Positions 6,618-64,000 of a DNA stretch of 64,000 bases are shown here, piece after piece. The position numbers were made by a program, and so were the translations under genes. This DNA comes from Pristiophorus japonicus. Its lineage: Eukaryota. Location: contig NC_091997.1 of NCBI RefSeq assembly GCF_044704955.1, positions 16,554,001 to 16,618,000 on the forward strand. Reading direction: 5' to 3'. Within the stretch, counting starts at the first letter, position 1, and each line of letters opens with the position of its first letter. The notes beneath the pieces were generated by a model. The model had not been told where the DNA came from, searched no databases, and worked only from the letters and a program-made list of their open reading frames with translations.

Positions 6618-7397
6618 AAAGCACTGAAATCCATTTTTGTCAGCCAGAAGCTCAAATCTGCACCTCTCTATCCGACTCCATAATTTTAATGTGCCTGCTC
6701 CGTTAATGTTCATGCTCTTCTACCAGGCTGGAGTGGCAGCCCTTCCCTAAACAGGAATCTGGGCGCCCCAGCAATCTGCCTTGGAGGGAACTGGTCAGAG
6801 GGCAGCAGGGTTGTGCCAAGTAGCAGGAACTGGGTAAACGACAGTGGGTTTTAAAGATCGACGCTGTGGAGATCGGCAGAGGATGCTGAGTGGACTGTGA
6901 TAGTGCGGGAATCCTCTGCGGCTCTGACCGTCAGCAGAAATCCCGTTTCGCCGCTTGAAAGGGGCTTCAGCTGAAGCTCTAATTTTGAAGCTCACCCCCA
7001 GCCCCCCCCCCCCCCAGAATGGAGCATTCCCAAACTGGGAGCTATCGACGCATGGGCCTACTGGCACTTGTGGCACATCAGCCTCCATCAGGAGCTGTTA
7101 TTGGACTGCTTGGAAAAATATCAGAGCGAATTTCGTATTATATTCTTGTGTTTTCACTGTTGTGAGCTCACAAGGGAAATATAAGAAAACCATCAGGCAT
7201 TTGAAACAACAGCTACTCATGTTATTTTCTCTTCTGATTTTCTTTCCTTCCTCTCTTGATGTCCGTGACTCATCTGAATGACATCAAAAATAGATGTTTA
7301 TTTCCAATGATGGATAGTAGAAATGTAGATCGAGGGGATAAATCCACAAAAGCCTCAGCCCCGCATCTAGCTGCAAATCAAAATGGGGAGTCAAGGA

Positions 7398-7637
7398 TAT
7401 AATGTATTTGCTTCATGGGTTCTTTGCTTAAGAATTCATAGAAACACATTGCTATTAAGAACTAGTTGGTTTATTAACAAAGGTTTAACAATCACACTAC
7501 ACATTACCAGTTCATCAACTAGGCTCACAACTGCATACCTCATCGTGGATGACCTAGACCCAATTGACAGGGGCTTTATTGAGTCTTGTGAACATCACCT
7601 GACTGGCTAAGCCACTCACAATGCAACCACTCTACAA
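7398..7637 (-). mobile_element. LTR family A, copy 1 (interrupted/truncated)
   Basis: Highly similar to 42755-43018 and 52865-53160; stops at CTCTACAA, where foreign sequence begins. Confidence 0.8.
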
Positions 7638-7699
7638 CTATTTTTGATCAACTTTTAAATCGTGCCCTTTTATTAAGGGCACAATCAACATGCCTACAA

Positions 7700-7932
7700 C
7701 TATTTTAGTTGAAACCATCAATCAAATGCCCCCTTATTAGAGGGGGCACTAAAACCGACAAATAAACAAATTAAATTTTGACCATCAACTTAATTCAATT
7801 TAAAATTTGGTTGTCGGGGGTGATGATGCACTCCAGTCCCTCCGGCACCCACCTCTCGTGGAAGGCTGTGAGCGGTGGACATCTCGTGCTCCATCTCCAG
7901 GGATACCCTGGCTCGGTTGTAACCGCGGAAGT
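7700..7932 (-). mobile_element. L1/Tx1-clade retrotransposon 3' end (ORF2 C-terminus + 3' UTR)
   Basis: Minus strand reads FRGYNRARVSLEMEH.../AFHERWVPEGLECIITPDNQILN*, resembling recalled Tx1-type ORF2 C-termini. The 3' UTR has a TGCCCC...GGGGCA hairpin. A shorter related 3' stub lies at 7638-7685. Confidence 0.7.
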
Positions 7933-9415
7933 CTAACTAACGGCGGGCACAGGTTGTTGACTGATTACAGGTATTTTTGGGCCTTCGTGATATTTTTTAA
8001 GTTTGCAATTCTGGAATTGTTTGGATCTAATGATACTTTGCAACATTTTAACATTTTCCTTTTTGTTTGCTACTGGCTCAGCACGCCACTAAATTTGATG
8101 CATTTGTTTCATTATTGTTGCTTCTATCAATTTTAGTTAACATAAATTCAGACAGAAGGAGTTAAGAGCAGCCCGATAAACACTTGAAAAAAAAAATCTT
8201 ATAGATACGGGAAAAGAGCAGAAAAATGGAATTAGAGTAGATTGCTCCGACCTGCCGTGGGTGTACGTTCATCGTGAGTCGAATGCTTCCTGAGATTTTG
8301 TATGTTTCTTGTGATTATAATTTGGAACTCTTGAAGGCTGTACCAGCAGAGCATTTTATTGCTTAAACCATAACCCATTACATACACAACTGGTTCTCCT
8401 GATGATGCCTTTCAATTTCCTACAACCAAAATATTTGTAGCTTGCTTGCTGGTGATCCACTGTTTTGGACAGAAATGTTCTGTATTTATTACTCTGGCAA
8501 GCCCTTCAGAGTAAAATTCATGTTCTGAACTGGTTAATTAAGTAAGTTGTTTCAATGGAGCAATTGAAATGTTTTAAAATGTGCAATAAAATGATAGCAA
8601 TCAGTGGGATAAATGAATAGCGGGACAAAGGAAATCATGCTGGTTTGTCATTATTCCATGAACAATGCCAATGATACTATATTTGAAAATACTACAAAAA
8701 AGATGCAGAAAATGAGTAAAAATGTATCACTCATGTACTCCTTTAAGAGTTAATGTTGGGACCTTAAATGTACCTTATAACTCATGATTATGGCATAAGG
8801 TGATTTTCTCATCCAACTCGTGTCACTATGATTTAAGCGTGGAACCTCATGATTTTATGTTGCGACTGTTTATCTTTCAATAGCACAAGAATAAAAAAAG
8901 CCTCCACATAAAAAAACACAGTATGATCGGGTCCATCCATATTTTACACATTTTGTCAATATCTGCAAATTCTCTATCTTATTAAGAACCAGCAGTTGGA
9001 GCAATTGTCAGAGGATTTTTCCCTCTCCTGATTTAATCACCTTACCCTTCCTCTCCTGATGGTAACGCATGCAAATTATTCCAAAATGGGATGCAGAGAA
9101 AATAATGTGGAACTATATAACTAAATTCAGAAAGATTTTGATCTTTTAGATAGCTGGTAGTATATTGTAGAACCAGTTCTATGTGGTTAAATTTAAATTA
9201 ATCAGTATGGGAGCAAGGAACTGAGAGCGAGAGAAGGAGAGAGTAACAAGGAATTAATTGGACATTGTTAAATGGAATAGCTCAATAGCTTAGTAATCGG
9301 CAAAGAGATCTCGGGCTCTAGTGGATAAATCCATGAAACACTCAGCCCAGTGCTTATTGCAATAAAAAATATAAAATACTGAGTTGGCATAAGAATAGAA
9401 TACCAATCAAAGTAT

Positions 9416-15055: not shown

Positions 15056-15622
15056 AAAAATACATGGGTCAATATCACTGAGAATTTTTCTGGAAAAGTA
15101 GATCAAAAAACAAATAAAGTGAATTGGCCTGCGGCAATAGGAATTTACCTGGTCCTGTGAGCATTCTAAAGGTTACTGAATGGAATAAATATACACTCAG
15201 CATTATAAATACTGACTTAGTTAAGATGTCCCAAAGGGAACTAACCAGGTGCTTCGGTAGGGAGCTGAGAAAATTGGGTTTGAGGTAATAGCAATCAAAA
15301 TTGATCAGTTTCAGATCCTCAAAGATGATCTAAATGTTAGAGAAGGAGTATGTGAATCTGCACTAAGGTTACACACTATTCGAGTCTGCTGGAAATATTG
15401 GGGCCGAAATTGCGTATCAGGGCATTAACTTTTCTGAGGCCGGACATTCCGCGCACGGCACAGAACTCCCACCCCTGAAGCGAAATTGGACTTACTGCCC
15501 CTGACAGGAAATGGATGCAATGTTGACGCTCCATGTCCTCTCGGGGGCGCTACCCGGGCGAACGTTGGTGCACTACGCGCTCTCCACTTAGCGCTGACGC
15601 GTTTCGCAGGCCGTCCCATTCC

Positions 15623-23570: not shown

Positions 23571-25418
23571 GATGCTGATGCCGTGTTTTTCCACCTATCC
23601 ACCAATGCTCATTCCAGCAGCAACTAACATTTTTCCAAATTATGGTGACTTCCAATAGATACTGAGCATCGCTGACTGCCATTTGTATGTCTACCGACAA
23701 TTCTTTGGCATACCTAAAGAGGGTGATATATTCCACCACCTTGTTAGCTGCCTGGGAAGTACCAAAACATTAGAGTTGCATGCAATTGGACGATTTTCTA
23801 TCATTTCCAATATCAAAATCATATTGCATAAAATTGCTAGTGAATAGGTGCAGGCATCCACCATTTAGATGCCAGTCAGAAATAAAATCTATGTAAAAAA
23901 ACAAACTTGACCATTTTATAGAAAAAGGGAAAATATAATCCTTCAAATTTTTTTGTCCTGTGAAGCGCCTTGTGATGTTTTACTATATTAAAGATGCTAT
24001 ATAAATACAAGTTGATGTTGATCATAATACCAGGATCTGCAGGATCTGAGATGATGTTTTTAAAAAATGTTTATTTCCCCCCTAAAATCCATTTCTCTTC
24101 TTGCTGACTCAAGGAATCTGTCCAATTCCCTTTGGAATGTTTCAATATTGAATAACACAATATTTAACACACTGGGTGAAAGTCTATTCCATATAAATAT
24201 CCTTAGAATGCCAACAGGCCCAGATAAATTCCTGTCTCTGGTACAAAGGCTTTTGTTGTTTGCACGATGACACTGAAATAGCACCAATATTACAGTAATA
24301 TAAATGCTCCAATATTTTGAGCACCATTTTTAATGTAATATTAACCCTGCATAGCTACGCTTGGGGCTGGTTTACTAACTGGCTGATTCTAGCAGGAATC
24401 GGGCACTCACAGGGAGTACTAGTTGGGCAATTGTGGACCTGCAGTCCTTGATTTTCTGTCCATTGACCAGGGCCACAACCGCTCAATTTCCTGAGCAGCA
24501 CTCACTGTGTCTCGCTCTGTGTGCCCGATGGGCGAATCAGTTTTTGTATCTAAAAGTAAAGAAAATTAAATAATTGAATTCTCTCTGTATTCAATTCTAT
24601 TTCCTGCATTCTCTCTTTCCCTTTCTCTTTTTAAAAAAAAAAGACGTTTAATTTTACGGTTTATCTACTTCAGAATTAGCAGGCCTGGCCCCTGTTCAAG
24701 ATTTATGCAACACCTATCCTTCTTTCACACTTCATCCTATTCAGTTCCACAATCATTGACACCAGCGCTTGCGTGGTCCAGCTGCTTCAAGGCCAAGGCT
24801 GCTTCACAACAAGTTGTCATGAGGATGTGTTATTTACATTTTGCCCTCTTTCTTTGTCCAGATCATCATAGGCAGTCCCTCGGTGTCGAGGATGACTTAC
24901 TTCCATGCTAGAAATGTGTTCCCAGGTGACTGAAGAGTCTTATGCGGGACCTACAGTCTCTGTCACAGATGGGGCAAACGGTGGCTGATGGAACGGGTGG
25001 GTGGGGAGCCTGGGTTGCCGTGCGCTCCTTCCGCTGTCGATGCTTGGCTTCAGCTTGCTCTCGACGAAGAGACTCGTGGTGTTCAGCCACTTCCCGGATG
25101 CTTTTCCTCCACTTTGGGCGATCTTGGGCCAGGGATTCCCAGGTGTCGGTGGGGATGTTACATTTTTTCAAGGAGGCTTTGAGGGTGTCCTTGAAGCGTT
25201 TCCTCTGCCCACCTGGGGCTCGTTTGCCGTGTCGTAGCTCCGAGTAGAGCGCTTGTTTTGGGAGTCTAGTATCGGGCATGCGGGCGATGTGGTCTGTCCA
25301 GCGGAGCTGATTGAGCATGGTCAGTACTTCGATGCTGGGGATGTTGGCCTGAGTGAGAACACTGATGTTGGTGCGCCTATCCTGCCAATGGATTTTCAGG
25401 ATTTGCAGAGGCAGCATT

Positions 25419-28400
25419 TGTTGTATATGCAAGCACTCTAATAATGACACCACAAGGTAACGGTATAGTACTTGAACTGTAGTGACCTTAGTCCTTTATT
25501 GCAGCACCTAGAGTGAGGATACCAAGAGGTGAGCTCCCTTTTATACTTGGTTACCTGCAGTGTACAGGTGACCCTTAGGTCTCCAGCAGCAGCACCCTCT
25601 GATGTATAGGTATAGTGTATACAGGGTGAAGGTACATTCAGTGGTCTAGTGTTACAGTACATACATTAACATGCATACATAACAACACTCCCCCCTAAGC
25701 CTTTCCCAAGTCCTTATTGCCATGACCTGGGGAGACGATTGGTAGTGGACGATGGGAGGTTGTGGTGAGGGTTGTGTGGGTGCCGGGTGTGATCCCTGTG
25801 TTCATGGCTGCACACATCCATTTCCCCCCCCATACATAGACCATGAGGGTGTCACTGTTGGAGGATTCCGCAGTGGTAGAGCAAGTGCATGTTGTCATGG
25901 GGTAAGGTACATACATTGTAGAATGGGTAGGTGGTGGCGTCTACTGGTGGTCAGGGCCACAGGGTGGGTGTGGCCTCTTTGTCCTCCATTGATGGTGGGA
26001 GTCTGGTCATCCCAGGTTCCATCGGGAAAGCTGGAGGTTACTGGCCTCTTGCTCCCGATGCTGGCCCTGGTGGCCAGGGGTGGGTAGGGCTGATCTTGGG
26101 ACAGGTTGCCAGTGGTGGTGGCTGTGCTGCTTATTGACCGCTGTCCCTGTAGTGGGTATGCTCCCACTGGGTGTGTGTGAACCCTTCCTGGGGCATCACA
26201 TTGGTTCCCGAAGCGCAGGCTACATGATCAGTGGAACTGGGTGTTTCCCACGGGGGGGGGGTCCCTTTGGCATTGTCTTTATACATGTAGAACCCGGTAT
26301 AATTTCTCATTCTCACATTAGCATACATGATACATTGGCTCCGATCGCAACTAGCTACTTCGACATTGTTATACTTCTTTACACTTCCACGTTTGTCACT
26401 TACAAGGGTTACATTTGACACTTTAGCATTACTGGAATCACTGTTCAACAGTGCAAACTTGTCACTTACATCATCTTTTGAAGCATTCATTACATTTCTC
26501 ATTAGCATTGCCGGCATCACCATTCAACAGTACATCTATATAACTGCATTCATTATTGACACTTTTATCTTTAATATCACCGGCATCGCTGTGCCAAGAG
26601 TGGAACCGTCCCTTTAATTCTTCTGGGTTGCCGGCCCCCTTTAAGCGGGCCTTGCAGTCTTTACCCCAATCCAGTTCGCCGCTCGGTGACACGTGTTGCT
26701 CGCTCAATGCTGCCCCTTGTGGTCAGGTCGCAGCCATCTTGAATCCAGGTGCTTCGCCTCGTGGTGTGGGCACCACCTTCTCTCTCTCCACGAGGTAGGC
26801 TGCAGTGATCTTTTTCTCCCCAGGTTCTGCCACAGACGCCGGGAGTCTACCTTCTGCGCCGATCTTCTTCCCTTGGAGTCCTGCCACCGGAGCCCGGAGG
26901 TCTGGTCGTTCAGGTTGGATCATCTCATTGAGTTATGCAGTCTGTGTCGTTGCCACGCAGTCGAGTCGGACGGTAGGATTTTCAGATGTCGATCGCCAGG
27001 GCCTGGAGGCCTTTGTCGCTTCGACAGATTTGGACTTGCATCATCCAGCTTCTTCCCAGCAGCGTTGGCCTATCACCGTCAAAGATCCACAGGGGTAGCT
27101 TGTGCATCGCGCTGCCATGGAATGCCTGGACCTCCACGCTGCCAATGACTGGGATGGTGCCTTTTGTGTAGGTGAGTAGCTTTGCTTGGACTGGGATATT
27201 TTGGGTCGTTTGGCGGGATTGTTCCAGAGTTTCTCAAAGGCCGCCTGACTCATCAATGACTGGCTCGCCCCTGTGTCGATCTCCATTCTACTTCCATTTT
27301 CCACGGGGAACTCTCGGTGGAGCAGGTATATATTCCGTACTTCTCTTCCGGGGGCTGAGCAGCTTTGTCTTCATCAGCGCTGGAGCCCAGGTGATCGGCC
27401 AAATCTTCAGCGGCTCGGTGAGTAAAACTTTTTCTTCATATTCGCTGAAGGTGACCTTTAGTGTTGCAGCCTTTGCAGGTATAGTCTTTGTATCGGCACT
27501 GGTGGGCCCTGTGGTTTCCTCCACAGCGCCAGCATGGGGCTAGCCGGTTGGCCTCATGTGGCGGACTCAGGGTTGCGGGACTCAGGACAGCAGTCTTGCC
27601 TCTGAAAGTCACCATTCTGTTCACTGTACCGTCGGGCTAGATTCCTGGGTGCGGGTCATCAACCGTTTGGAGTCGCAGACCGAAATCATGAAAGCCTGGC
27701 TCACTTTGATTGCCTTCTGCAGGGTGACCGCAGTGAGCAGTTTATGGAGGAGGCCCTTGTGGCCGATTCCAATAATGAAGATGTCCCTTAGTGCTTCGGT
27801 GAGGTGGTCGCCAAAATCCACACAGTGCAGCCAATCTTCTCAGATCTGCAGCGTATTTAGCAATTTCTTGGCCTTCGGGTGTAGAACCGGTGTCTGGCTG
27901 TGAGAATGCTCTCTTTGGGTTTGAGTTGTTCTTGTATTAAAGTTACGAGCTCCTCATGGGTCTTGGTTGTCGTCTTCACTGGGGCTAGCAGGTCCCTGAC
28001 GAGGCCATGGACATTGGGCCCACAACTGCTGAGCAGGATGGCTCTGTGCTTGTCCGCCAGCGAGATCGTTGAGTTCCCAGCCAGGTCGTTCACGATGAAA
28101 AAGTGTTCTAGCCTTTCCACAAAGGCATCCCAATCTTCCCCATCAGCGAATTGTTGGAAGTTGCTTAGGTTAGACATATTGTGCGTGGAATTCGTAACCT
28201 TATCGCCAGTTGTTGAATGTGCAAGCACTCTAATAATGACTCCACGAGGTAAGGGTATAGTTCACTTGAACTGTAGTGACCTTAGTCCTTTATTGCAGCT
28301 CCTAGAGTGAGCACACCCTTTTATACTTGGTTACCTGCAATATACAGGTGACCCTTAGGTCTCCAGCAGCAGAACCCTCTGGTGTACATGTATACTGTAT

Positions 28401-28464
28401 ACAGGGTGAAGGTACATTCAGTGGTCTAGTATTACAGTACATACATTAACATTCATACATAACA
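25419..28464 (-). mobile_element. Non-autonomous Ty3/Gypsy LTR element (gag + protease, no RT/RNase H/integrase seen)
   Basis: LTRs at 25419-25684 and 28211-28464 (TG...CA), 5-bp TSD GCATT, PBS TGGCGATAAGG (28198-28208), PPT GGGGGGAGTGT next to the 3' LTR. Confidence 0.92.
27041..28177 (-). pseudogene. Gypsy gag-protease, frameshifted
   Basis: MSNLSNFQQFADGEDWDAFVERLEHFF...; zinc knuckles CWRCGGNHRAHQC and CKGCNTKGHLQR; protease motif MEIDTGASQS. Confidence 0.85.
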
Positions 28465-30021
28465 GCATTGGTGGTACTTCTCCAGTGTTGAGGTGCCTGT
28501 TGTACATAGTCCATGTCTCTGAGCCATATAGGAGAGCGGGTATCCATGCTGTGTAGTCCATGAGCTTGGTGCCGGGTTTGAGGTCCTGGTCTTCAAACAC
28601 TTTCTTGCTTAGGCGACCGAAAGTTGCACTGGCACACTGAAGGCGGTGTTGGACCTCGTCATCAATGTCTGCCCTTGTTGACAGTAGGCTCCTGAGGTAT
28701 AGAAAATGGTCCACATTGTGTAAGGTCTCGTGGTGAATTTTGATAACCGGGGGGGGGGGGGGGGGGGGGTGGCAGTACTGTGTGGCGGGGGCAGGTTGGT
28801 AGAGGACCTTTGTCTTACAGCTGTTCAGTGTAAGGCCCATGCTCTCGTACGCCTCAGTGAAGGTGTTGACGATGGCTTGGAGTTCGGCCTCCAAGTGTGC
28901 GCAAATGCAGGCGTCGTCTGCGTACTGTAATTCGGTGATGGAGGATGGGATGACCTTGGATCTGGCCTGGAGGTGGCGGAGGTTGAACAGATTCCCGTTT
29001 TCCTGTAATTTAGTTTCCACTCCAGCGGGGAGCTTGCCGAGGGTGAGATGGAGCATTGCAGCAAGGAAGATCAAGAAGAGCGTTGGTGCGATGACACAGC
29101 CTTGCTTGACCCTGGTCCAAACATGGAATGGGTCTGAGATGGATCCATTGGTCAAGATCACGGCTTGCATGTCATCGTGAAGCAGACGGAGGATGGTGAC
29201 AAACTTTTGAGGGCAGCCGAATCTGAGGAGGACACTCCATAATACCTCACGGTTGACAGTGTCGAAGGCTTTTGTGAGGTCGAAGAAGGCCATGTGCAGG
29301 GGTTGGTGCTGTTCCTGCATTTCTTTTGTATCTGTTGTGCGGTGAAAATCATGTCCATTGCGCCCCTTAGTGGGAGGAATACGCATTGCGACTCTGGGAG
29401 GAGTTCTTCAGCCGCAGGAAGAAGGCGATTCAGGAGGATTCTTGCGATGACTTTCCCACTGGTCGACAGCAGGGAGATGCCTCTGTAGTTATCGCAGTCG
29501 GACTTGTCACTTTTCTTGAAGATGGTCACGATCTCCTGGCATGATCTCCTCCTTGCAGACAAGAGATATAAGATCATGGATCTGCGCCAGTAGTGTTTCT
29601 CCACCATGTTTTAGTGCTTTGGCGGGGATTCCATCTGCTCCTGATGACTTGTTGTTCATCAGTTGTCAGATGGCCTTTTCAACCTCGTGCCGGGCTGGGG
29701 TTGTGCTGAGATGGTGGCGGGTAGCATGCTATGGGATGGAATCGAGGGCACTCACATCGAAGACAGAGTCTCGGTTGAGGAGATCCTCAAAGTACTCCTT
29801 CCAACAGGCACTGAAAGTCTCTCTGTCCTTGATGAGCACCTCTCCGTTCTTGGCCAGTAGTGGGGTAGGTCCTTTGCTGCTGGGGCCGTAGGTCATCTTG
29901 ATTGCACTGATGAATCCTCACACGTCGTGGTTGTCGGCTAGCTGCTGGATTTCTTGAGCTTTCTCCACCCACCATTTGTTCTTTAGGTCGCGGGTTTTCT
30001 GTTGGACCTCTGCCTTCAGAC

Positions 30022-32650: not shown

Positions 32651-33620
32651 CTCGTGCCCCATGATCAAATAAAATGCCATAGTTCACCGGCAGGACCCAC
32701 ACATGAAGCAAATGAAAATGTTGTTTTATATGGAAAATATAAAATATCTATTCAATCGTCGGGCCTGTCCAACATACCAAAGTCCCAAGGGCAATACAAT
32801 AATGGGTTGTTTTGCTAAATAAATTATATCCAGCAGGCACTCCAAATGTGTCCCGTTTATTGCAGGATTGTGTTCTGGAATGGCTTCAAGTATAAATAGA
32901 TTGAGCAGAAATGACATTGTCTGACAAAGAATATAGATCTCAAAGTGCACTGGACAATGCAGCCAGTGTCCAGTGCACTGCCAGTGATGAACAGCTACCA
33001 AATTCCAGACATGAATTTTAGTGTGATAACTGAGCACAAAGGAACAATAATCTACCCCAGTTACTCATCACACTTTTTTTTTAATACGCTGAGTGCTAAA
33101 ATCACAGTTTATACACTATGTTAAAGTGATTCTTGCAGCTAAGTTCACAAAATTCTTTTTTTTAAATGAAGCATACAAAAGTATTTCCACTATGTTCACA
33201 TTGCAGTGTTTGTATTTCTGCAGTAAAATTATTGGAAAAGGCCAAGAATAAACCATTTAATAGAAACTGGGCTTTTGAATATCCATTTGAAATGTGTCGA
33301 AAGATTTTCCTTATTCTCTTTTTATCTTTGGACTGGAGATAATGCAAACTCTGGGCCTTCAAGGTTTCGGATGCAGCAGATACAGCTCTTTACCTCCAAG
33401 GATTGTTCTGTTACCTCTTATTATCTATATATATAAAAATCTTTCATAGGGCACTTCCTGTCTACAAACCTTACTTCCTGTTGTCAAGCTTTTTGGTCAC
33501 AATTCTCTGACAACATTTATCATTGTAAATTGCTATGTCAACATTTGTCATTCAATTTTGCTGTGCAGTTGCAGGCTCTGACCACCAGGTATGCCTGAAG
33601 AGCTTCTCCCAACTCGATGG

Positions 33621-33827
33621 TGTTATATATGTAAACCTGCAAATACCTTGTTTAACCACCAGAGGGCTCATCCCCTGGAGTCCCAAGGGATCCCACAATC
33701 CCTTGGGAGCACATGTATTTAAGGAGGCCTCACAGGCTGGAGAGGCACTCTGGAGACTTGTAATAAAAGACTAAGGTCTTTATTTGAGCTCGCAGTATCT
33801 GGTCAGACTCTTTATTCATACATAACA
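33621..33827 (+). mobile_element. Solo Gypsy LTR (related to the 54490 LTRs)
   Basis: TGTTAT...ATAACA termini, perfect 5-bp TSD GATGG, AATAAA, and the shared CCCAAGGGAT...ATCCCTTGGG hairpin. Confidence 0.92.
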
Positions 33828-42754: not shown

Positions 42755-43018
42755 TATAATGTATTTGCTTCATGGGTTCTTTGCTTAAGAATTCATAGCA
42801 ACACATTGCTATTAAGAACTAGTTGGTTTATTAGCAAAGGTTTAACAATCACACTACGCATTACCAGTTCATCCACCAGGCTCACAACCACCAGCCTCAG
42901 TGAGGATCCCCCCAACCCAACTGGCTGGGGTTTTATTGAGTCTTGTGAACATCATGTGACTGGCTAAGCCACTCCCAACTCAAAAGCTCTACAAACCTGT
43001 GAGCATGCACACATTACA
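42755..43018 (-). mobile_element. LTR family A, copy 2 (uninterrupted solo LTR)
   Basis: Short inverted termini TATAATGT...ACATTACA; AATAAA on - strand; flanks GCAGT/ACGGT could be a decayed 5-bp TSD. Confidence 0.8.
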
Positions 43019-47535: not shown

Positions 47536-48671
47536 TGGTCTCCCTCCATCAGCTAGATTTCATGGTGTCGGTGCCTGGGCAACCAACAGTGTTATATAAC
47601 CAGGACATTGTGGTTCTATGAGAGTGCCATCAGATTAAAGGAGTTGCTCCCATTGAAGTAAATGTGAGGAGCCATTTCCCTTGATACAGCTACTGATTCC
47701 CCAGATTTCCCAGCAGAATCCAACGTGATTGCCCCTCGATTTTAAAATTAAAATGGAGAGAATGACGTAGAGAGGCTACTCTCTCCAGTCAGCAGAGAAA
47801 CAGCCGAGTATTGCAGACACCTTAAATTAGTGAAGGTGGGCTACCATTAAAAGTATGATTCCATTTCAGATGAAATTTAAATAGTGTTGTGGTAAATCAA
47901 ACTTTTGGGCCTTTGATGACTTGTACTTCAGCTGATTGAGAACACTGGACAATTTGGCTGAGAACTTAGCTTTACTTCAATCGCCTTCGAATACAAACTT
48001 CAAATGCTTAATTGTGGGTAATCATTCACAAATGTATTATTTTGCAGCAATATTCAAAATGCAACGGGGGACATTTTATAATAAGGTGAGTTAGAATCTT
48101 CATTCAGCTAACTGACAGTGTATTTGTTCTATAATACCCACAGCATACGCCTATTTATGATCATGGGAAATAACAAAAAGTGCTGCCTTGCAGTCTACTT
48201 CAGTGATGAAGATCACAAAGTACGCACTACAAGCGTGAATTTTATTGCTCCAGGACATTAATGGCAACATTAAAGACCAACCTTTACTCACCGTACTGCT
48301 GCTGCACAATCTCACTAACTTCTATGTTGAACAACCATCAAAGTTGACATCCATCTTCTATTATTAAGCTGTTTCGAAATGAAAGTGTACATGCCAGTAC
48401 ATGGCATATCTCTCCTTGGTCTTGAACATATCTCAGTTGATAATGTATGATGCATCTTCCCTGGGTAGTTCAGATTTGTGGTCACAACTGGGCTTCAGGA
48501 TTGATTAATATCTCTGCTCAGTTAATCTAATCAAGATTTGAACAGTAGCTCGCTAAATAAATTTATCATTTCTTTGAGCAAAAAATTTCAAAGTTGGTCG
48601 ATTGAACCGTTGCAAATATAACAGTACCATTGAAATTGGTTCTGAATTCAAAATTGAGATTCAGTGACAAA

Positions 48672-50453
48672 GGGCTCAAGTTTCAGACCCCCGCTAGAAC
48701 GCCGCACATCGGAGAGGCCCGCCTAATTTGCAGAACAAAAATTACGCCGAATACTTACCTCGCGATTCTCAGATAGCTGTCGGCCCGTTTCCAGCTCGGC
48801 GCGGCGCAGCAGGAGCTGCTGGGGGCGGAGCTACAGTCCTGCGCCAAAAACAGGGTCGGCAGCTGCGCGCGTGCGCAGTAGCTCCTGGCCCTCTCAGCGC
48901 GCCCTGTCTCCGGGCGACGACCCTATCCCTGGCCGAAGGGACGTCGCCCCTATCCCGGGCCGAGTGGCCTGACACCTCTTACCTCGTCGGCGGGGCTCGC
49001 CCGCCCGGCATCTCGCTGGGGGCGAGGCCTGCCCAAAGTGTCGGCGGCGGTCCGGCATCTTCTGCGTGCGGGCCCCACCCGAAGTCCTCGGCGGGGTCCA
49101 TTCAGCTTCCCCCCCTCTCTCTTCCCCCTCCTCTCTTTCCCCCCTTCCTCCTCTCTTTCCCCCTTCCCCCTCTCTTTCTCCCCCTTCCCCCTTTCTTTCC
49201 TCCCTTCCCCCTCTTTCTCCCCCCTTCCCCCCTCTTTCTCCCCCTTCCTCCTCTCTTTCTCCCCCCCTTCCCCCTCTCTTTCTCCCCTTTCCCCCCTTCC
49301 TCCTCTCTTTCCCCCTTCCCCCTCTCTTTCTCCCCTTTCCCCCCTTATTCCTCTCTTTCCCCTTCCCCCTCTCTTTCTCCCCCTTCTCCCTCTCTTTCTC
49401 CCCCTTCCCCCTCTCTTTCCCCCTTCCCCCCCTATCTCTTCCCCCTTCCCCCCCTCTCTCTTCCCCCTCCTCTCTCTTCCCCCTCCTCTCTTTCCCCCTT
49501 CCTCCTCTCTTTCCCCCTTCCCCCTCTCTTTCCTCCCTTCCCCCTCTCTTTCTCCCCCTCCCCCCTCTTTCTCCCCCTTCCTCCTCTCTTTCTCCCCCCC
49601 TTCCCCCTCTCTTTCTCTCCCCTTCCCCCTCTCTTTCCTCCCTTCCCCCTCTCTTTCTCCCCCTCCCCCCCTCTTTCTCCCCCTTCCTCCTCTCTTTCTC
49701 CCCCTCTCTTTCTCTCCCCTTCCCCCTCTCTTTCCCCCTTCCCCCTCTCTTTCCCCCTTCCCCCTCTCTTCCCCCTCTTTCTCCCCCTTCCCCCTCTCTT
49801 CCCCTTCTTTCCCCCCTTCCCCCTCTCTTTTTCCCCCCTTCCCCCTCTCTTCCCCTCCTCCCTCCACCCCCTCCCCTCCCCCTCCCCACCTCCCATCAGA
49901 AACACAGAGAGACACTGACAGAGACAGAATGAGAGACACTGACAGAGACAGAGACATTGGGGGGGACCTCCCAGCTTGCTGTTGGAGGGCTCCCGGTGCT
50001 GCAGTAGGTGAGTAGAAATAATTTTTTATTTATTGATTGATTTTTTAATTATTTAAAAATAATTTTTTAGACCCTCTAAATTTATGTAAATTTCTTATTT
50101 AAAAAATTATATTTCTTGTTTTAAATACTTAATTAAATACCATTTTGATTAATTTTAAATATATAATATATATTTTACGTGTACGTGTATTTTTTGGGAG
50201 TATCCCCATTCATATTTATGGGCTTTCCATACATACGGAATCCCCATAAGTATGAATGGGAATCCCCTTCTTTCATTGGTTGGGCAAGCCCACGTGATCC
50301 GCGCCGCTGGGATACATGGGCCTCTACACAGGCCTAAGCATAGAGGCCCAGGGCCGCATCTCTGAACCTCCCGGACCACCAGGTAAGGGCATAGATTCTT
50401 TGCAGGTCGGAGGCATCTGCTTGTGGAAAGCCTCCGACCGCAATTTCAGGCCC
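48672..50453. mobile_element. Composite Harbinger-type MITE containing an expanded CT tract
   Basis: Ends GGGCTCAAGTTTC and CAATTTCAGGCCC; the right portion (about 50060-50453) resembles the right portion of 62338-63026. Confidence 0.6.
49106..49894. repeat. ~790-bp homopyrimidine/homopurine minisatellite
   Basis: Degenerate ~20-bp units like CCCCCTTCCCCCTCTCTTTCT; about 4 A and no G on the + strand. Confidence 0.95.
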
Positions 50454-52864: not shown

Positions 52865-53160
52865 TGTAATATTATTTGCTTCATGGGTTCTTTGCTTAAG
52901 AATTCATAGCAACACATTGCTATTAAGAACTAATTGGTTTATTAGCAAAGGTTTAACAATCACACTACACATTACCAATTCATCCACCAGGCTCACAACC
53001 ACCGGCCTCAGCGTGGATCCCCTGAACCCAACTGGCTGGGGTTTTATTGAGTCTTGTGAACATCACATGACTGGCTAAGCCACTCCCAATGCATCAGCTC
53101 TACAACTACTTTGGTTCCAACAGCTCTACAAACCTGTGAGCATACTCATAGGCGCATACA
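52865..53160 (-). mobile_element. LTR family A, copy 3 (12-bp insert with 14-bp duplication)
   Basis: Starts TGTAAT; highly similar to copy 2; contains CATCAGCTCTACAA-ctactttggttc-CAACAGCTCTACAA. Confidence 0.8.
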
Positions 53161-54732
53161 GGACCAATTTTGGGCCATCCTCAGACTTCTTGGTAGAGGC
53201 GCCACTGGTTATGGATCTGAACACAGATTATAGCTCATTTCCACCTCACAATCTCCACAGATTTTGGAGTGCGTTAGATGTTTAAAGAAAAAATTGGAAG
53301 AAATGTGAAGAATGTAGAAAATTGGATTACGCAGTTTATTCCCTTGTGTGGCAAAGTGCTGCCTCTACTTTTTCTTATAATCAAATAATCAATGCCTGAA
53401 GGAACCACTTTAGATCCTTACTCTTACTCTGTCTTTAGGAACTGCAAAAAGGCATCTTATATTGAACCATGTTTTTAGTAGTGAGAGAGCCATAAATAAT
53501 GTGTGTTATATTAGAGTGCTATTGTGAGGGGTATTGAACAGAGAGGATATTTATGAGCCATCCCAACTGATGAAGCTGTAAAAACAGCCTGATTTGCATG
53601 AAGTCGATAATGTTCGTTGACTTATCAGTTAATCATCGAAATAATCAAAGAAAAATTATGATGTGGCTGGTTTGCATGGGATTTATTTTTTGTTGATTAG
53701 TTTTTATGACATTTATCACAGTTTGACGATCTTGCAACATCTGGTGTGTACAAGGATCCAAGAATGCTCATGACTAATGTCTCTCAGATATAAAATCTCA
53801 GTTCCGTGAATAATGTTCAGAATCACTCAAGATATGTCAAGTTATTTTTGAACATGAAAGATTACTTAACAACTAAACTATGTTCTGCCATCTTGTATTT
53901 TTGTTCACAACTTGTTAGTAAACAACTATACCTCAACCAATACCACCAAAACAAATTATCTGGTCATTTATCTCGTTGCTGTTTGTGGCACTTTGCTATG
54001 TGCAAATTGGCCGCTGTGAAACTTTGAGAAAGGCACTATATAAATATAAGTTCTCTCTTTGTGAGTGGACTATTCATACATATTAGCTGTGGTCTGATCA
54101 TTCTTACTGGTCATAAATAGATCAACATATAGTAGCATAAAGTAAAAGAGTCTGGGGGAGAAATTGGGTGCCCTTGTGCCTCCCATTAGCACCCCTGGGG
54201 GGCGCTAATGGGGCCCAAATGCCTTGGCAAACAGACACGCGCTGACATTCACTCCCGCCATATTCGGAGGGAGTTTAGCAGCGACGTTACAGCGTTGTGC
54301 TCCGATCTCCTGTGCCCGGAGATTGTGACATCATCGCTGTGCGCATCGCCCCTGTAGCGTCCCGGACCCGAAATTGATTTCCGCCCTTTGCACCAGCATC
54401 GGGTGAAAGTAACGACAACTGCAGGAGGCATGCATCGGGCGGCCGGCCACTTTGGGGGCGATGATTAAAGGCGAGGTGGCCGAGGTAAGTGTTATGCATC
54501 TGTAAAACATACACTCCCATGTTCTGCCACCAGGGAGTGCATCCCCTGAAGTACCAAGGGATCCCAGCATCCCTTGGGAGCACTGTATATAAGCTGGCCC
54601 CTAAGGCCTATTCCTCACTCTGGAGTGTCTTAATAAAGACTGAGGTCACTGTCACTTTAACCTCCCTGAGTGCAGTCTCATCTGTGTTAGGAACACAATA
54701 ACTGGCGACGAGTATACGAATCCAACGCAAAG

Positions 54733-55741
54733 ATGCAGCAAACTGTGGGCATCCTGGAGAAGTTCTCGGAGGGTAAGGACTGGGAAGCCTATGTCGAATG
54801 GCTAGACCAGTACGTTGTAGCCAACAAGCTGGACGGAGAAGGAAGTGCTGCAAAAAGGAGAGCGGTCCTCCTCACGGTCTGCGGGGCACTGACCTACAGC
54901 CTTATGAAGAATCTTCTGGCTCCAGTGAAACCCACAGATAAGTCGTATGAGGAGCTGTGTACACTGGTTCGGGAGCATCTTTACCCGAGGGAGAGCGTGC
55001 TGATGGCGAGGTATCGGTTCTACACGTGCCAGCGATCTGACAGTCAGGAAGTGGCGAGCTATGTCGCCGAGCTAAGGCGACTTGCAGGACAATGTGAGTT
55101 TGATGGCTACCTGCAGCAAATGCTCAGAGACTTTTTTGTACTGCGCATTGGCCACGAGACCATCCTACAAAAACTTTTGACTGTAGAGACACTGACCCTC
55201 AGTAAGGCCATTGCGATATTTCCACCAGTGATAAAACCAGGCAAATCTCTCAGCACACAAGTGCTAGCAATGTTCATAAATTAACTGGAATTGTGTTTGC
55301 GAGCAGAAATGTATGGGGCAGAAACCATGAGTCTGCAGCTGCCAGCAGGCCTCAGGTGATCCAGATGACTCAGAATCCACAACAAAGGATGAATGCAAAG
55401 CAATTCACACCTTGTTGGCGTTGTGCAGGCTTCCATTCAGCCTATTCATGCCGCTTCCCAAGGGTATGTTTGCAAGAGCTGTGGAACAATGGGGCACCTC
55501 CAACGAGCTTGCAGACGAGCTGCAAGCTCTGCAAAACCTGCTAACCACCACGTGGCAGAAGAAGATCGGTCCATGGTGGATCAAAGCAATTTTGAGCCTC
55601 AGAGAGAGGAGACAGATGCTGAAGAACACGGGGTGCACGGTGCACACATTTTCAATGAAATGTCCACCTATAATGCTCATTGCAAAATTGAATGGCTTAC
55701 CCATAGCCATGGAACTGGACACTGGCGCTAGCCAATCATAA
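54733..55741 (+). pseudogene. Gypsy gag and start of protease (frameshifted)
   Basis: MQQTVGILEKFSEGKDWEAYVE...; knuckles CWRCAGFHSAYSC and CKSCGTMGHLQRAC; protease motif MELDTGASQS. Confidence 0.88.
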
Positions 55742-55896
55742 AAAGATATTTGAGAGACTGTGGTGCAACAAGGCACTCAGACCAGCGCTGAGCCCCATCC
55801 ACACAAAACTGAGAAAGTACACCAAAGAGCTTATCACTGTCCTGGGCAGCGCCATGGTCAAGGTCACTACAAGGGCACGGTGCACGAAATGCCACT

Positions 55897-58833
55897 TTGA
55901 TTGTCCCGGGCGATGGCCCCACACTGCTTGGAAGGAGCTGGCTGGGCAGAATCTGCTGGAACTGGGATGACATCCGAGCGCTATCAGATGTCAGTGAGGC
56001 CTCATGTACCCAGGTTCTTAACAAATTTCATTCCCTTTTTGAGCCAGGCATTGGAAACTTTTCCGGGGCGAAGGTGTGGATCCACTTGGTCCCAGAGGCA
56101 CGACCCATTCACCACAAGGCAGTACCTCACATGATGAGGGAGAGAGTGGAAATCGAGCTGGACAGGCTGCAATGCGAGGGCATCATCTCCCCAGTGGAAT
56201 TCAGCGAGTGGGCCAGCCCGATTGTTCCAGTACTCAAAAGTGATGGCACGGTCATGATTTGCGGTGACTATAAAGTAACTGCAAATCGTTTCTCGCTACA
56301 GGACCAATACCCGCTACCTAAGGCAGATGACCTATTTGGACGCTGGTAGGAGGCAAGATGTTCACCAAGCTCGACCTAACTTTGGCCTACATGACGCAGG
56401 AGCTAGAGGAGTCTTCGAAGGGCCTCACCTGCATCAACACACACAAGGGACTGTTCATCTACAAAAGTTGCCCGTTTGGAATTCGATTGGCTGCAGCGAT
56501 CTTCCAGAGAAACATGGAGAGCCTACTCAAGTCAGTACCACGCACGGTGGTTTTTCAGGACGACATATTGGTCACGGGCCGGGACACCGTCGAGCACCTA
56601 CAAAACCTGGAGGAGGTGCTCCAGCGACTGGATCGCGTAGCGCTGTGGCTGAAGAGGTCGAAATGCGTCTTCATGGCAACAGAAGTGGAGTTTTTTGGAA
56701 GAAAGATTGCGGCGGACAGCATTAGGCCCACAGACGCCAAGACAGGGGCTGTCAGGAATACGCCCAGGCCACAGAACATCACAGAGCTGCGGTCGTTCCT
56801 GGGACTCCTCAACTATTTTGGTAACTTCCTACCGGGGTTAAGCACCCTCTTAGAGCCCCAACATGTTTTATTGTGTAAAGGTGAGAACTGGGTATGGGGA
56901 AAAAACCAAGTAATTGCTTTTGAGAAAGCCAGAAACATTTTATGCTCAAACAAGCTGCTTGTATTGTATAACCCGTGTAAAAGACTTGTGCTAGCATGTG
57001 ATGTGTCATCGTACGGAGTCGGGTGTGTACTACAACAAGCTAACATTGCGGGGAAGTTGCAACCTGTTGCCTATGCCTCCAGGAGCTTGTTTAAGGTTGA
57101 GAGGGCCTACAGCATGATTCAGAAAGAGGCATTAGCGTATGTGTTCGGGGTAAAGAAAATGCATCAGTACCTGTTTGGCCTCAAATTTGAGCACGAAATT
57201 GATCACAAGCCCCTCACATCCCTGTTCCCTGAAAACAAGGGGATAAATACTAATGTCTCAGCCCGCATACAAAGGTGGGCACTCGCGCTATCAGCGTATA
57301 ATGATACCATCCACCACAGGCCAGGCACCAAGACTGTGCGGATGCTCTCAGTCGGCTACCATTGCCCACCACGGGGGTGGAAATGGTGCAGCCTGCAAAC
57401 TTGTTGATGTGGCTCAGCCCGCAGACTTGTTGATGGTCATGGAAGCATTTGAAAATGATAAATCACCTGCCACGGCCCGCCAGGTTAGGACTTGGACCAG
57501 CTAAGATCCTCTGCTGTCCCTAGTAAAAAAACTGTGTACTGCATGGGAGCTGGGCCAGCATCCCCGTTGAAATGCAAGAGCTAATCAAGCCATTCCAGCG
57601 GTGAAAGGATGAGCTGTCCATTCAGGCAGACTGCCTGTTGTGGGGTAACCACATAGTGCTACCAAAAAAGGGCAGGGAGATGTTCATCTCGGATCTCCAC
57701 AGCACACACCCGGGTATAGTAATGATGAAAGCGATAGCCAGATCCCACGTGTGGTGGCCCGGTATCGACTCTGACTTCGAGTCCTGTGTACGGCAATGCA
57801 GCGTGTGTGCTCAGTTGAGCAACGCGCCCAGAGAGGCACCACTAAGTTTGTGGTCCTGGCCCTCCAGACCATGGTCGAGGATCCATGTCGACTATGCGGG
57901 CCCGTTTCTCGGTAAAATGTTCCTGGTGGTGGTGGATGCTTTTTCAAAATGGATTGAATGTGAAATAATGTCGGGAAGCACTGCCACCGCCACCATTGAA
58001 AGCCTGAGGGCCATGTTTGCCACCCACGGCCTGCCTGACATACTGGTCAGTGACAACAGGCCATGTTTCACCAGTGCCGAATTTAAAGAATTCATGACCC
58101 GCAATGGGATCAAACATGTCACCTCGGCCCCGTTTAAACCAGCCTCCAATGGGCAGGTAGAGCGGGCAGTACAAACAATCAAACAGAACCTTAAACGAGT
58201 CACAGAAAGCTCACTCCAAACCCGCCTGTCCCGAGTACTGCTCAGCTACCGCATGAGACCCCACTCGCTCATAGGGGTGCCCCCGGCTGAGCTACTCATG
58301 AAAAGGACACTTAAAACCAGACTCTCACTGGTTCACTCCAACCTGCATGATCAGGTAGAGAACAGGCGGCAGCAAAAAATGTGAACGATGGTCGCGCCAC
58401 TCTGTCACGGGAAATTGATCTGAATGACCCTGTGTACGTGCTAAACTATGGACATGGTCCCAAGTGGATCGCGGGCACGGTGATAGCTAAAGAAGGGAGT
58501 AGGGTGTTTGTAGTCAAACTAGACAATGGACAAATTTGCAGAAAGCACCTGGACCAAACGAGGCTGTGGTTCACAGACTGCCCTGAGCAACCCACAGCAG
58601 ACACCACCTTTTCCGAGCCCACAACACACACCCAAAGGATCAACGACACCACCCCGGACCAGGAAATCGAACCCATCACGCCCAACAGCCCAGCAAGGCC
58701 AGGCTCACCCAGCAGCCCTGCAGGGCCAACAACATGCCAGCCCAGTGAGGGCACAGCCAACACACCAGAACAGACATTTGTACCGAGGCAGTCCACCAGG
58801 GAAAGAAAGGCTCCCGACCGCCTCATCTTGTAA
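55897..58833 (+). pseudogene. Gypsy pol (RT, RNase H, integrase) with stops and frameshifts
   Basis: EWASPIVPVLK, ICGDYK, FTKLDL, VVFQDDILV, LRSFLGLLNY, CDVSSYGVG, HSTHPG...CSVC, RIHVDYAGPF, VSDN, SNGQVERAV, GPKWIAG. Confidence 0.93.
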
Positions 58834-59606
58834 ATAGTTTTCACTTTGACTTTGGCGGGGGAGTGATGTTGTATATCTGTAAAGCATGCACTTCCATGTT
58901 CCGCCGCCAGGGAGCACATCCCCTGAAGTCCCAAGGGATCCCAGCATCCCTTGGGAGCACTGTATATAAGTCGGCCCCTAAGGCCTGTTCCTCACTCTGG
59001 AGTGTCTTATTAAAGACTGAGGTCACTGTTACTTTAACCACCCTGTGTGCAGTCTCATCTGTGTTGGGAACACAATAGTAAGTTTAAAAAAAAATACTTA
59101 ACTTTCTGGTTGAACTTTTTATCGTGGGTTCCTACCTGTGATCGTTCAGCCCAGCGCTCTGTTTGAATGCTGGGCTGATCGCACTAGTTCACCGCTCCCT
59201 TGGTGGCCTTTCATATTGCAGAGTCTCCCTTTAAGGGAGGGAAGGAGCCATTGAATGCGGCAGCGCTGCATGGCCCAGTGTGCACACTGCTGAGGTCTCT
59301 GCACTCTCCCTCCGCCCCACCCCCCCCCCACCTCCGGCTGTGGTCAGTGGTCTAAGAAGGAGGTGGAGTGCTTGAATTAGACAATTATTTTTTTTTAAGT
59401 TTAAAATCATTAGAGCCTGGTGCTAACTTTTCAAACTTTTAAAAATTAGCACCCCAAACGGGCAATAGTGAATTTCTGCCCTTCCTCCCCCTCCCCCCCC
59501 CTCCCCATTATTACATGATAAACCCATTACTAAGATGCAGATGCAATCAAGTCAAAAAGTATTATTGAGTTCAATGAAGGGAAAGGTTTTGAAGTGTCAC
59601 TGAAAA

Positions 59607-63068: not shown

Positions 63069-64000
63069 CCATCATCATAGGCAGTCCCTCGAAGTTGTGG
63101 GTGACTTGCTTCCACACTAGAAATGAGTTCTCAGGTGGCTGAAGAGGTCAAATGCGGGACCTACAGTCTCTGTCACAGGTGGGGCAAAAGGTGGTTGAAG
63201 GAAAGGGTGGGTGGGGAGCCTGGGTTGCCGCGCGCTCCTTCCGCTGTCGACGTTTCGCCTTCAGCTTGCTCTCGGCGAAGAGACTCGAGGTGTTCAGCGC
63301 CTTCCCGGATGCTTTTCCTCCCCTTTGGGCGGTCTTAGGCCAGGGTTTCCCAGGTGTCGGTGGGAATGTTACATTTCTTCAAGGAAGCTTTGAGGTTGTC
63401 CTTGAAGCGTTTCCTCTGCCCAGCTGGGGCTCGCTTGCCATGCCGGAGTCTCGTGCCAGGCATGCGGGCAGTGTGGTCCGTTCAGCAGAGCTGAGCGAGC
63501 GTGGTCAGTGCTTCGATGCTGGGGATATTGGCCTGAGCGAGGACACTGACGTTGGTGCGCCTGTCCTGCCAATGGATTTGCAGGATCTTGCGGAGGCAGC
63601 ATTGGTGGTACTTCTCCAGTGTTTTGAGGTGCCTGTTGTACATAGTTCATGTCTCTGAGCTATATAGGCGGGTGGGTATCACAACTGCATTGTAGACCAT
63701 GAGCTTGGTGCCGGGTTTGAGGTCCTGGTCTTCAAACATTCTCTTCCTCAGGCGACCGAAGGCTGCACTGGCACACTGAAAGCAGTGTTGGACCTCGTCG
63801 TCAATGTCTGCCCTTGTTGACAGTAGATCCCGAGGTATGCAAAATGGTGCACGTTGTCCAAGGCCTTGTCGTGGATTTTGATAACCCGGGGGCTGTGCTG
63901 TGTGGCGGGGGCAGGTTGGTAGAGGACCTTTGTCTTACGGATGTTCAGTGTAAGGCCCATGCTTTCGTATGCCTCGGTGAAGGTGTTGACGATGGCTTGG
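63069..64000 (-). mobile_element. RTE LINE 3' portion (continues beyond window)
   Basis: Homologous to 24862-25418 plus 28470-28880, uninterrupted at the GCATT site; same (TGA)n tail. Confidence 0.92.

Follow-up and report, generated by a model that had tools for sequence, protein, structure and literature searches.

Copies of one short repeat are interrupted at the same nucleotide by inserts that differ from one another, which raises the question of whether a LINE has specialised on the long terminal repeat (LTR) of another transposon as its landing site. We addressed this question in the window, that is, the whole stretch of 64,000 nucleotides that was analyzed, and in contigs from public sequencing runs that could be placed on it. 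The host repeat, here called repeat A, is 264 bp long and is present in 3 copies in the window, which share a common part of 240 bp at 87.5% to 94% identity. Our conclusion is that several related LINE subfamilies very probably insert again and again at the repeat A site by sequence-specific target-primed reverse transcription (TPRT).

A shared breakpoint in repeat A

The coordinates of the repeat copies, the target, and the inserts are collected in Table 1. Three differing inserts (12, 48, and approximately 236 bp) start at one nucleotide and in one orientation in copies 1 and 3 of repeat A, and all 3 have the target as their 3' flank (3/3 in the window). Copy 2 is empty, with its unfilled junction between 42994 and 42995. 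The first-pass annotation of this DNA had described 3 copies of the repeat with copy 2 empty, a copy 1 broken twice in tandem at the same nucleotide, similar hairpins in both inserts of copy 1, and a third insert at the same site in copy 3. All these observations were confirmed: copy 1 is broken after 7637 by the 48-bp insert and, behind the second target (7686-7699), by the insert that begins at 7700, and the third insert is only 12 bp long.

Table 1. Features of repeat A and its inserts, in positions of the window.
Feature	Position	Strand	Remarks
Repeat A, copy 1	7398..7637	-, strand inferred	the 240 bp to one side of the target; putative solo LTR
14-bp target beside the repeat body, copy 1	7624..7637	.	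12/14 identical to 53118-53131
Insert 1	7638..7685	-	48-bp LINE 3' tail; stem-loop 7659-7685
Decayed second target between inserts 1 and 2, likely a target site duplication	7686..7699	.	10/14 identical to 7624-7637
Insert 2, 3' UTR	7700..7794	-	stem-loop related to that of insert 1
Insert 2, reading-frame end	7795..7935	-	stop 7795-7797; frameshift near 7872; 5'-truncated near 7931-7935
Repeat A, copy 2, empty	42755..43018	-	264 bp; inverted ends; two minus-strand AATAAA; target 42981-42994
Repeat A, copy 3, filled	52865..53160	-	
Target site duplication, first copy, copy 3	53092..53105	.	13/14 identical to 53118-53131
Insert 3, 12-bp stub	53106..53117	-	likely the 12 terminal bases of a related LINE tail
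Target site duplication, second copy, copy 3	53118..53131	.	remainder of repeat A then continues

The chance that 3 inserts fall on one position of a 264-bp element is approximately 1.4e-5, and it is 0.004 when only 2 repeat copies are counted as independent. The 8-mer CTCTACAA was found 5 times in the window against 2.05 expected, and 7 of 100 shuffles reached 5. Because this motif alone is little enriched, the signal lies in the common breakpoint and not in the motif. Rfam gave 0 matches in the window, and the target is thus no recognised RNA gene.

The signature of TPRT is present at the site, namely a fixed 3' end, variable 5' truncation, and a long target site duplication. For inserts 1 and 3, both sides of the duplication are complete. 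For insert 2, its far side is missing. At 2 positions between inserts 1 and 2 (7691 and 7693), the letter of the target is carried by 92% to 95% of the contig depth. Past 7935, the rest of copy 1 and the far-side duplication of insert 2 are unrecognisable (1204 and 1352 of 2920 random windows score equally). Positions 15153 and 7932-7969 were examined as candidates for the missing end of copy 1 and not accepted, the alignment of the latter being at chance level. The segment 7932-7969 follows directly on the 5' boundary of insert 2. It closes with ATTACA, as does the terminus of repeat A, and could represent a decayed remainder of the repeat.

Inserts 1 and 2 are related to each other, as their alignment score was reached by 0 of 1000 shuffles, and both carry a stem-loop near the minus-strand 3' end (z -4.87 and -4.45, respectively; 0 of 200 shuffles reach either value) in which the upper stem pairs differ on both sides (U-A versus C-G). 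On the minus strand, the inserts terminate in an A-rich tail that lacks poly(A), and the last 12-mers of the three are 9/12 identical pairwise. Since the tails are only 9/12 identical to one another, the 3 inserts represent different subfamilies. For the 12-bp insert, the match to each of the other tails (9/12) is in register, and 186 of the 127,976 12-mers of the window equal either long tail that well. The same insert also matches a spot in the empty repeat A at 9/12, the best of approximately 500 positions, and its identity as a LINE tail therefore rests on its in-register position at the junction.

Filled and empty sites in public sequencing contigs

Contigs from public runs were placed on positions 7380-8000 at a likeness of 80, which yielded 31,883 (X1), 30,480 (X3), 1,694 (X5), and 146 (X8) contigs. 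Runs X1 and X3 derive from one sample, X5 from a second study of the same organism, and X8 from another organism. The rows listed comprise 15 of the 65 joints, 12 of the 42 between-letter rows, and 24 of the 1329 loose-end rows, and none of these loose-end rows lies at 7700. Empty sites were seen in 142 contigs of X3 and 4 of X8, which break off after 7637 and then match the empty copies of the window. Filled sites were seen in 137 (X1), 134 (X3), and 8 (X5) contigs, which follow the repeat, the target, and seven common tail letters and then diverge (loose ends behind 7644). Agreement past 7644 is only 0.48 to 0.58, which indicates that many different tails are joined to the site. The 15 listed joints comprise 2 deletions within the repeat and 13 joints between repeat and insert, and 12 of these 13 leave the repeat within 7616-7644, the remaining one being off-site (7531 to 7817). 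The binomial tail for the listed joints (8e-11) is merely indicative because they are a selected subset. Among the 12 between-letter rows listed there is one off-site joint (7914 to 7578). The listed rows also contain additional tandem stacks whose 5' ends are different (7846 to 7694 in X1 and 7899 to 7694 in X3), and a 310-base contig of X5 spans 7538-7644 and 7795-7914 with 86 other letters between the 2 segments.

Relatives of insert 2 keep its sequence as far as the stop codon, and their divergence sets in to the left of 7795 (agreement 0.55 in 131 and 109 contigs), as expected for the end of a coding region followed by variable UTRs. At the other end, relatives continue past 7931 with common sequence (125, 123, and 5 contigs; agreement 0.76 to 0.79 for the 125 and the 123), and the boundary at 7931-7935 is therefore a 5' truncation. 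The LINEs at the repeat A site are thus several subfamilies that differ in their 3' UTRs and not a single family. The first-pass annotation had proposed one Tx1 family specialised on the LTR. Site-specific, repeated insertion of 5'-truncated LINEs stands, given the shared breakpoint and the varied contig tails, whereas the single family has to be given up, as tails that are 9/12 identical point to several subfamilies.

The second organism (X8) contains repeat A as well as the coding tail, besides its 4 empty-site contigs, and no filled site was seen there at low cover (146 contigs). The pair of repeat A and LINE may predate the species, or the organism of X8 may differ in targeting.

Depth over the repeat body is approximately 1e5 times that over the unique flank, and so is depth over the coding tail, values that are not copy numbers. 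When the depth at 7632-7637 is assumed to equal that at 7628, the part of the target-site depth that runs into the common tail letters is approximately 26% in X1, 25% in X3, 7% in X5, and 0% in X8 (low cover). Read from the other side and assuming flat depth over 7700-7715, the fraction of the insert-2 tail depth that continues into the target is 46% (X1), 56% (X3), and 92% (X5). These rough values concern one tail type and are not locus counts. For comparison, a LINE is called target-specific when more than 20% of the flanks of its family are one sequence type, a criterion of Kojima 2015 (PMC4494074). In X1, the depth of the coding tail (1.0-2.6 million) is about that of the repeat (1.2-2.0 million), yet only about a quarter of the target-site depth looks filled, and most related LINE ends are therefore probably located elsewhere or come from subfamilies that have other targets.

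This excess of coding tail over filled junctions bears on the strongest alternative, that the LINEs read a short motif anywhere and that repeat A is merely its commonest carrier, which is quite conceivable although we lean against it. A short motif would fit the approximately 10 bp that the endonucleases of Tx1L and TRAS1 are reported to read (PMC1919474), and the 2 off-site joints among those listed point the same way. Against it, the window contains 4 places on the plus strand and 2 on the minus strand that resemble the target (at most 3 mismatches), and no such tail is found at any of them. Motif reading of this kind would alter the word specialised and not the mechanism, and it is compatible with repeated sequence-specific insertion at the repeat A site.

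The host repeat and the possible copying of its inserts

We then considered what repeat A is. Its edge at 7400 is sharp, with 1145 (X1) and 1128 (X3) contigs that carry unrelated flanks (agreement 0.36 to 0.37). Its ends are of the TG...CA type with short inverted repeats (TA replaces TG at one end in copies 1 and 2), and copy 2 has promoter- and poly(A)-like AATAAA motifs on the minus strand only, at 42937 and 42832. These inverted ends, the length of 264 bp, and the 2 AATAAA on one strand make a solo LTR in minus-strand orientation the likely identity of repeat A. In this reading, the target likely lies 24-38 bases from the start of repeat A, upstream of the promoter-like AATAAA and oriented as the LINE is. 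That the repeat is instead a non-autonomous DNA transposon, or a dispersed repeat of some other kind with short inverted ends, appears unlikely to us. It would agree with the failure to find an internal region, a primer-binding site, or a clean flanking duplication for repeat A (tested for a duplication of 4 to 6 bp, the flanks of copy 2 match at 3/5 and copy 3 shows none), with the lack of similarity to the LTRs of the Gypsy-type element of the window, and with the frequency at which DNA transposons are targets of Tx1 families according to PMC4494074, whereas the ends, the length, and the single-strand AATAAA motifs fit a solo LTR.

The Gypsy-type LTR retrotransposon (54490-59077) has 211-bp LTRs that are 91% identical, and its gag, RT, RNase H, and integrase domains are spread across several frames. 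A related LTR fragment is located at 33616-33778. The LTRs of the 54490-59077 element bear no insert of the kind found in repeat A. A motif of repeat A gave 0 matches in metagenome contigs and 0 in viral contigs. In copy 3, an inverted repeat of 8 pairs with a 4-base loop (53133-53152) directly adjoins the target and might help target recognition. The tail of copy 2 is shorter than that of copy 3, and most of this inverted repeat is absent from it.

An LTR element copies the U3 of its 3' LTR into both daughter LTRs. In the minus-strand reading, the insertion site belongs to U3, and a few LINE insertions in the LTRs of active master elements could have been multiplied by LTR replication, short stubs being tolerated and contigs being unable to separate identical inserts at different loci. 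We regard such hitchhiking as highly improbable as the origin of the many filled sites. All 3 inserts in the window differ, the tails in the contigs are heterogeneous (agreement approximately 0.5 in 134 to 137 contigs), and the 5' ends vary (7846, 7899, approximately 7935, 48 bp, and 12 bp). Moreover, many independent insertions at one nucleotide would still require targeting. Copying by the LTR element may raise the share of filled sites, but it does not account for the many different tails found at one base.

Almost certainly wrong is the view that repeat A is the 3' UTR of the LINE itself, or that the structure goes back to one ancestral chimera or to an artefact of assembly. The repeat does come after the LINE tail on the minus strand and has a sharp end at 7398, but empty copies exist (copy 2 and the 142 contigs of X3), repeat A lies on both sides of the insert in copy 3, unrelated tails join at the same base, and this type of junction recurs in the second study (X5). 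The first-pass annotation had itself named the single ancestral chimeric LTR and the LINE's own 3' UTR as threats to its reading. The former is contradicted by the varied tails, the varied 5' ends, and the empty sites in the contigs, and the latter by the empty copies and the unrelated flanks in the contigs, and we rejected both. A third threat named there, random flanks of the LINE 3' ends genome-wide, was addressed by the rough depth values for one tail type.

The LINEs, their proposed insertion mechanism, and known systems

All 3 inserts are 5'-truncated, and the coding tail of insert 2 comprises approximately 140 bp. We take its protein tail to resemble the C-terminus of Tx1 ORF2, and from this putative resemblance, together with the Tx1-like target-specific behaviour, the LINEs at the repeat A site are likely of the Tx1 type. 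The frameshift near 7872 coincides with five extra letters in some public contigs. Pfam returned 0 families for the coding tail (one frame scanned). A word-index protein search with one unaltered frame gave 1 candidate and none that scored, and 0 candidates when the frameshift was bridged by X. With phmmer, one unaltered frame searched against 1.84 billion proteins gave 4 matches, and the 3 examined were unrelated tandem-repeat proteins. A motif of the coding tail hit 7 metagenome and 2 prokaryote loci, all 9 over only 19-30 matched bases, and these were treated as chance.

The coding tail of insert 2 has no match to the other LINE fragments in the window, which is rich in decayed LINEs. The fragments 24862-25687, 28207-28880, and 63071-64000 are mutually related (84-87% identical), and the piece 28421-29407 contains an RVT_1 domain. 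The window also holds a pyrimidine-rich low-complexity tract of approximately 1 kb (around 49000-49900) with long open frames in five of six frames, and the GC skew is -0.47 in 48001-50000.

The mechanism that we propose follows established TPRT biology. An APE-type endonuclease of the LINE would nick the plus strand of the window directly after CTCTACAA, on a strand whose sequence is unlike the TTTT/AA site of mammalian L1. The nicked 3' end would prime reverse transcription at the 3' end of an RNA that would have no poly(A) and a conserved stem-loop approximately 20-25 bases from its end. Early stops of synthesis would be common and would leave stubs of 12 to a few hundred bases, and a second nick on the other strand 14 bases away would produce the 14-bp duplication. 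Because this duplication would restore the target, later insertions could stack head to tail. What was observed is the fixed 3' junction, the single orientation, the 14-bp direct repeats, the variable 5' ends, the tail types, the stacks, and the empty sites.

A broader reading, which is somewhat unlikely as a whole, is that a radiation of LINE subfamilies whose 3' UTRs turn over freely, with one conserved stem-loop and one target, occupies the 14-bp site in roughly one fourth of the members of an LTR family with copies of the order of 100,000, the inserts in U3 also being spread by LTR replication. If so, the family would provide the largest natural data set on how a LINE endonuclease keeps one target and would show the minimum length of a TPRT product (12 bases).

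By their look, the repeats of the window suggest a cartilaginous fish. Our literature search found no case of a LINE targeting an LTR in a cartilaginous fish, and the parts of PMC3747384 and PMC5381603 that bear on this contain nothing on shark Tx1 targets. A search with the target 11-mer gave nothing on transposons by title among the 15 of 66 papers listed. Both families may already be named in Repbase or Dfam.

Tx1L of Xenopus laevis, an APE-type LINE, inserts into the transposon Tx1D, as described in PMC4494074 and PMC1919474, and the latter cites a specificity set by its endonuclease, with a reported recognition region of approximately 10 bp. The repeat A LINEs resemble Tx1L in that a LINE inserts into another transposon, and they differ from it in that the Tx1L target is a non-autonomous piggyBac DNA transposon and the target here is likely an LTR. 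The Tx1-Mar families and SINEU-3 share two hot spots in the abundant Mariner-N4_AMi. According to PMC4494074, SINEU-3 makes a 16-bp duplication, tandem copies sandwich a duplication in Mariner-N4_AMi, and hitchhiking was considered for these insertions and rejected on the basis of truncated copies. As in the repeat A case, several families use one abundant transposon with a long duplication and tandem copies, but their target is a DNA transposon with two hot spots, whereas here it is one site in a likely LTR.

Target specificity of LINEs for LTRs is already published for crocodilian Tx1 families, as Tx1-8_Crp and Tx1-4_AMi prefer LTR retrotransposons (Kojima 2015, PMC4494074), and the principle is thus known. 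The main text of that paper gives no target sequence for the LTR cases. How retrotransposons are targeted can be better understood with sequence-specific APE endonucleases whose targets are defined, and thousands of filled and empty sites would let the assembly yield the target profile directly. Compared with Tx1-8_Crp and Tx1-4_AMi, the locus described here involves another host and another, likely LTR, brings many 3' UTR types together at one 14-bp site, and contributes a further LINE-in-LTR pair, one in which the target is defined to the base, the duplication measures 14 bp, and insertions stack.
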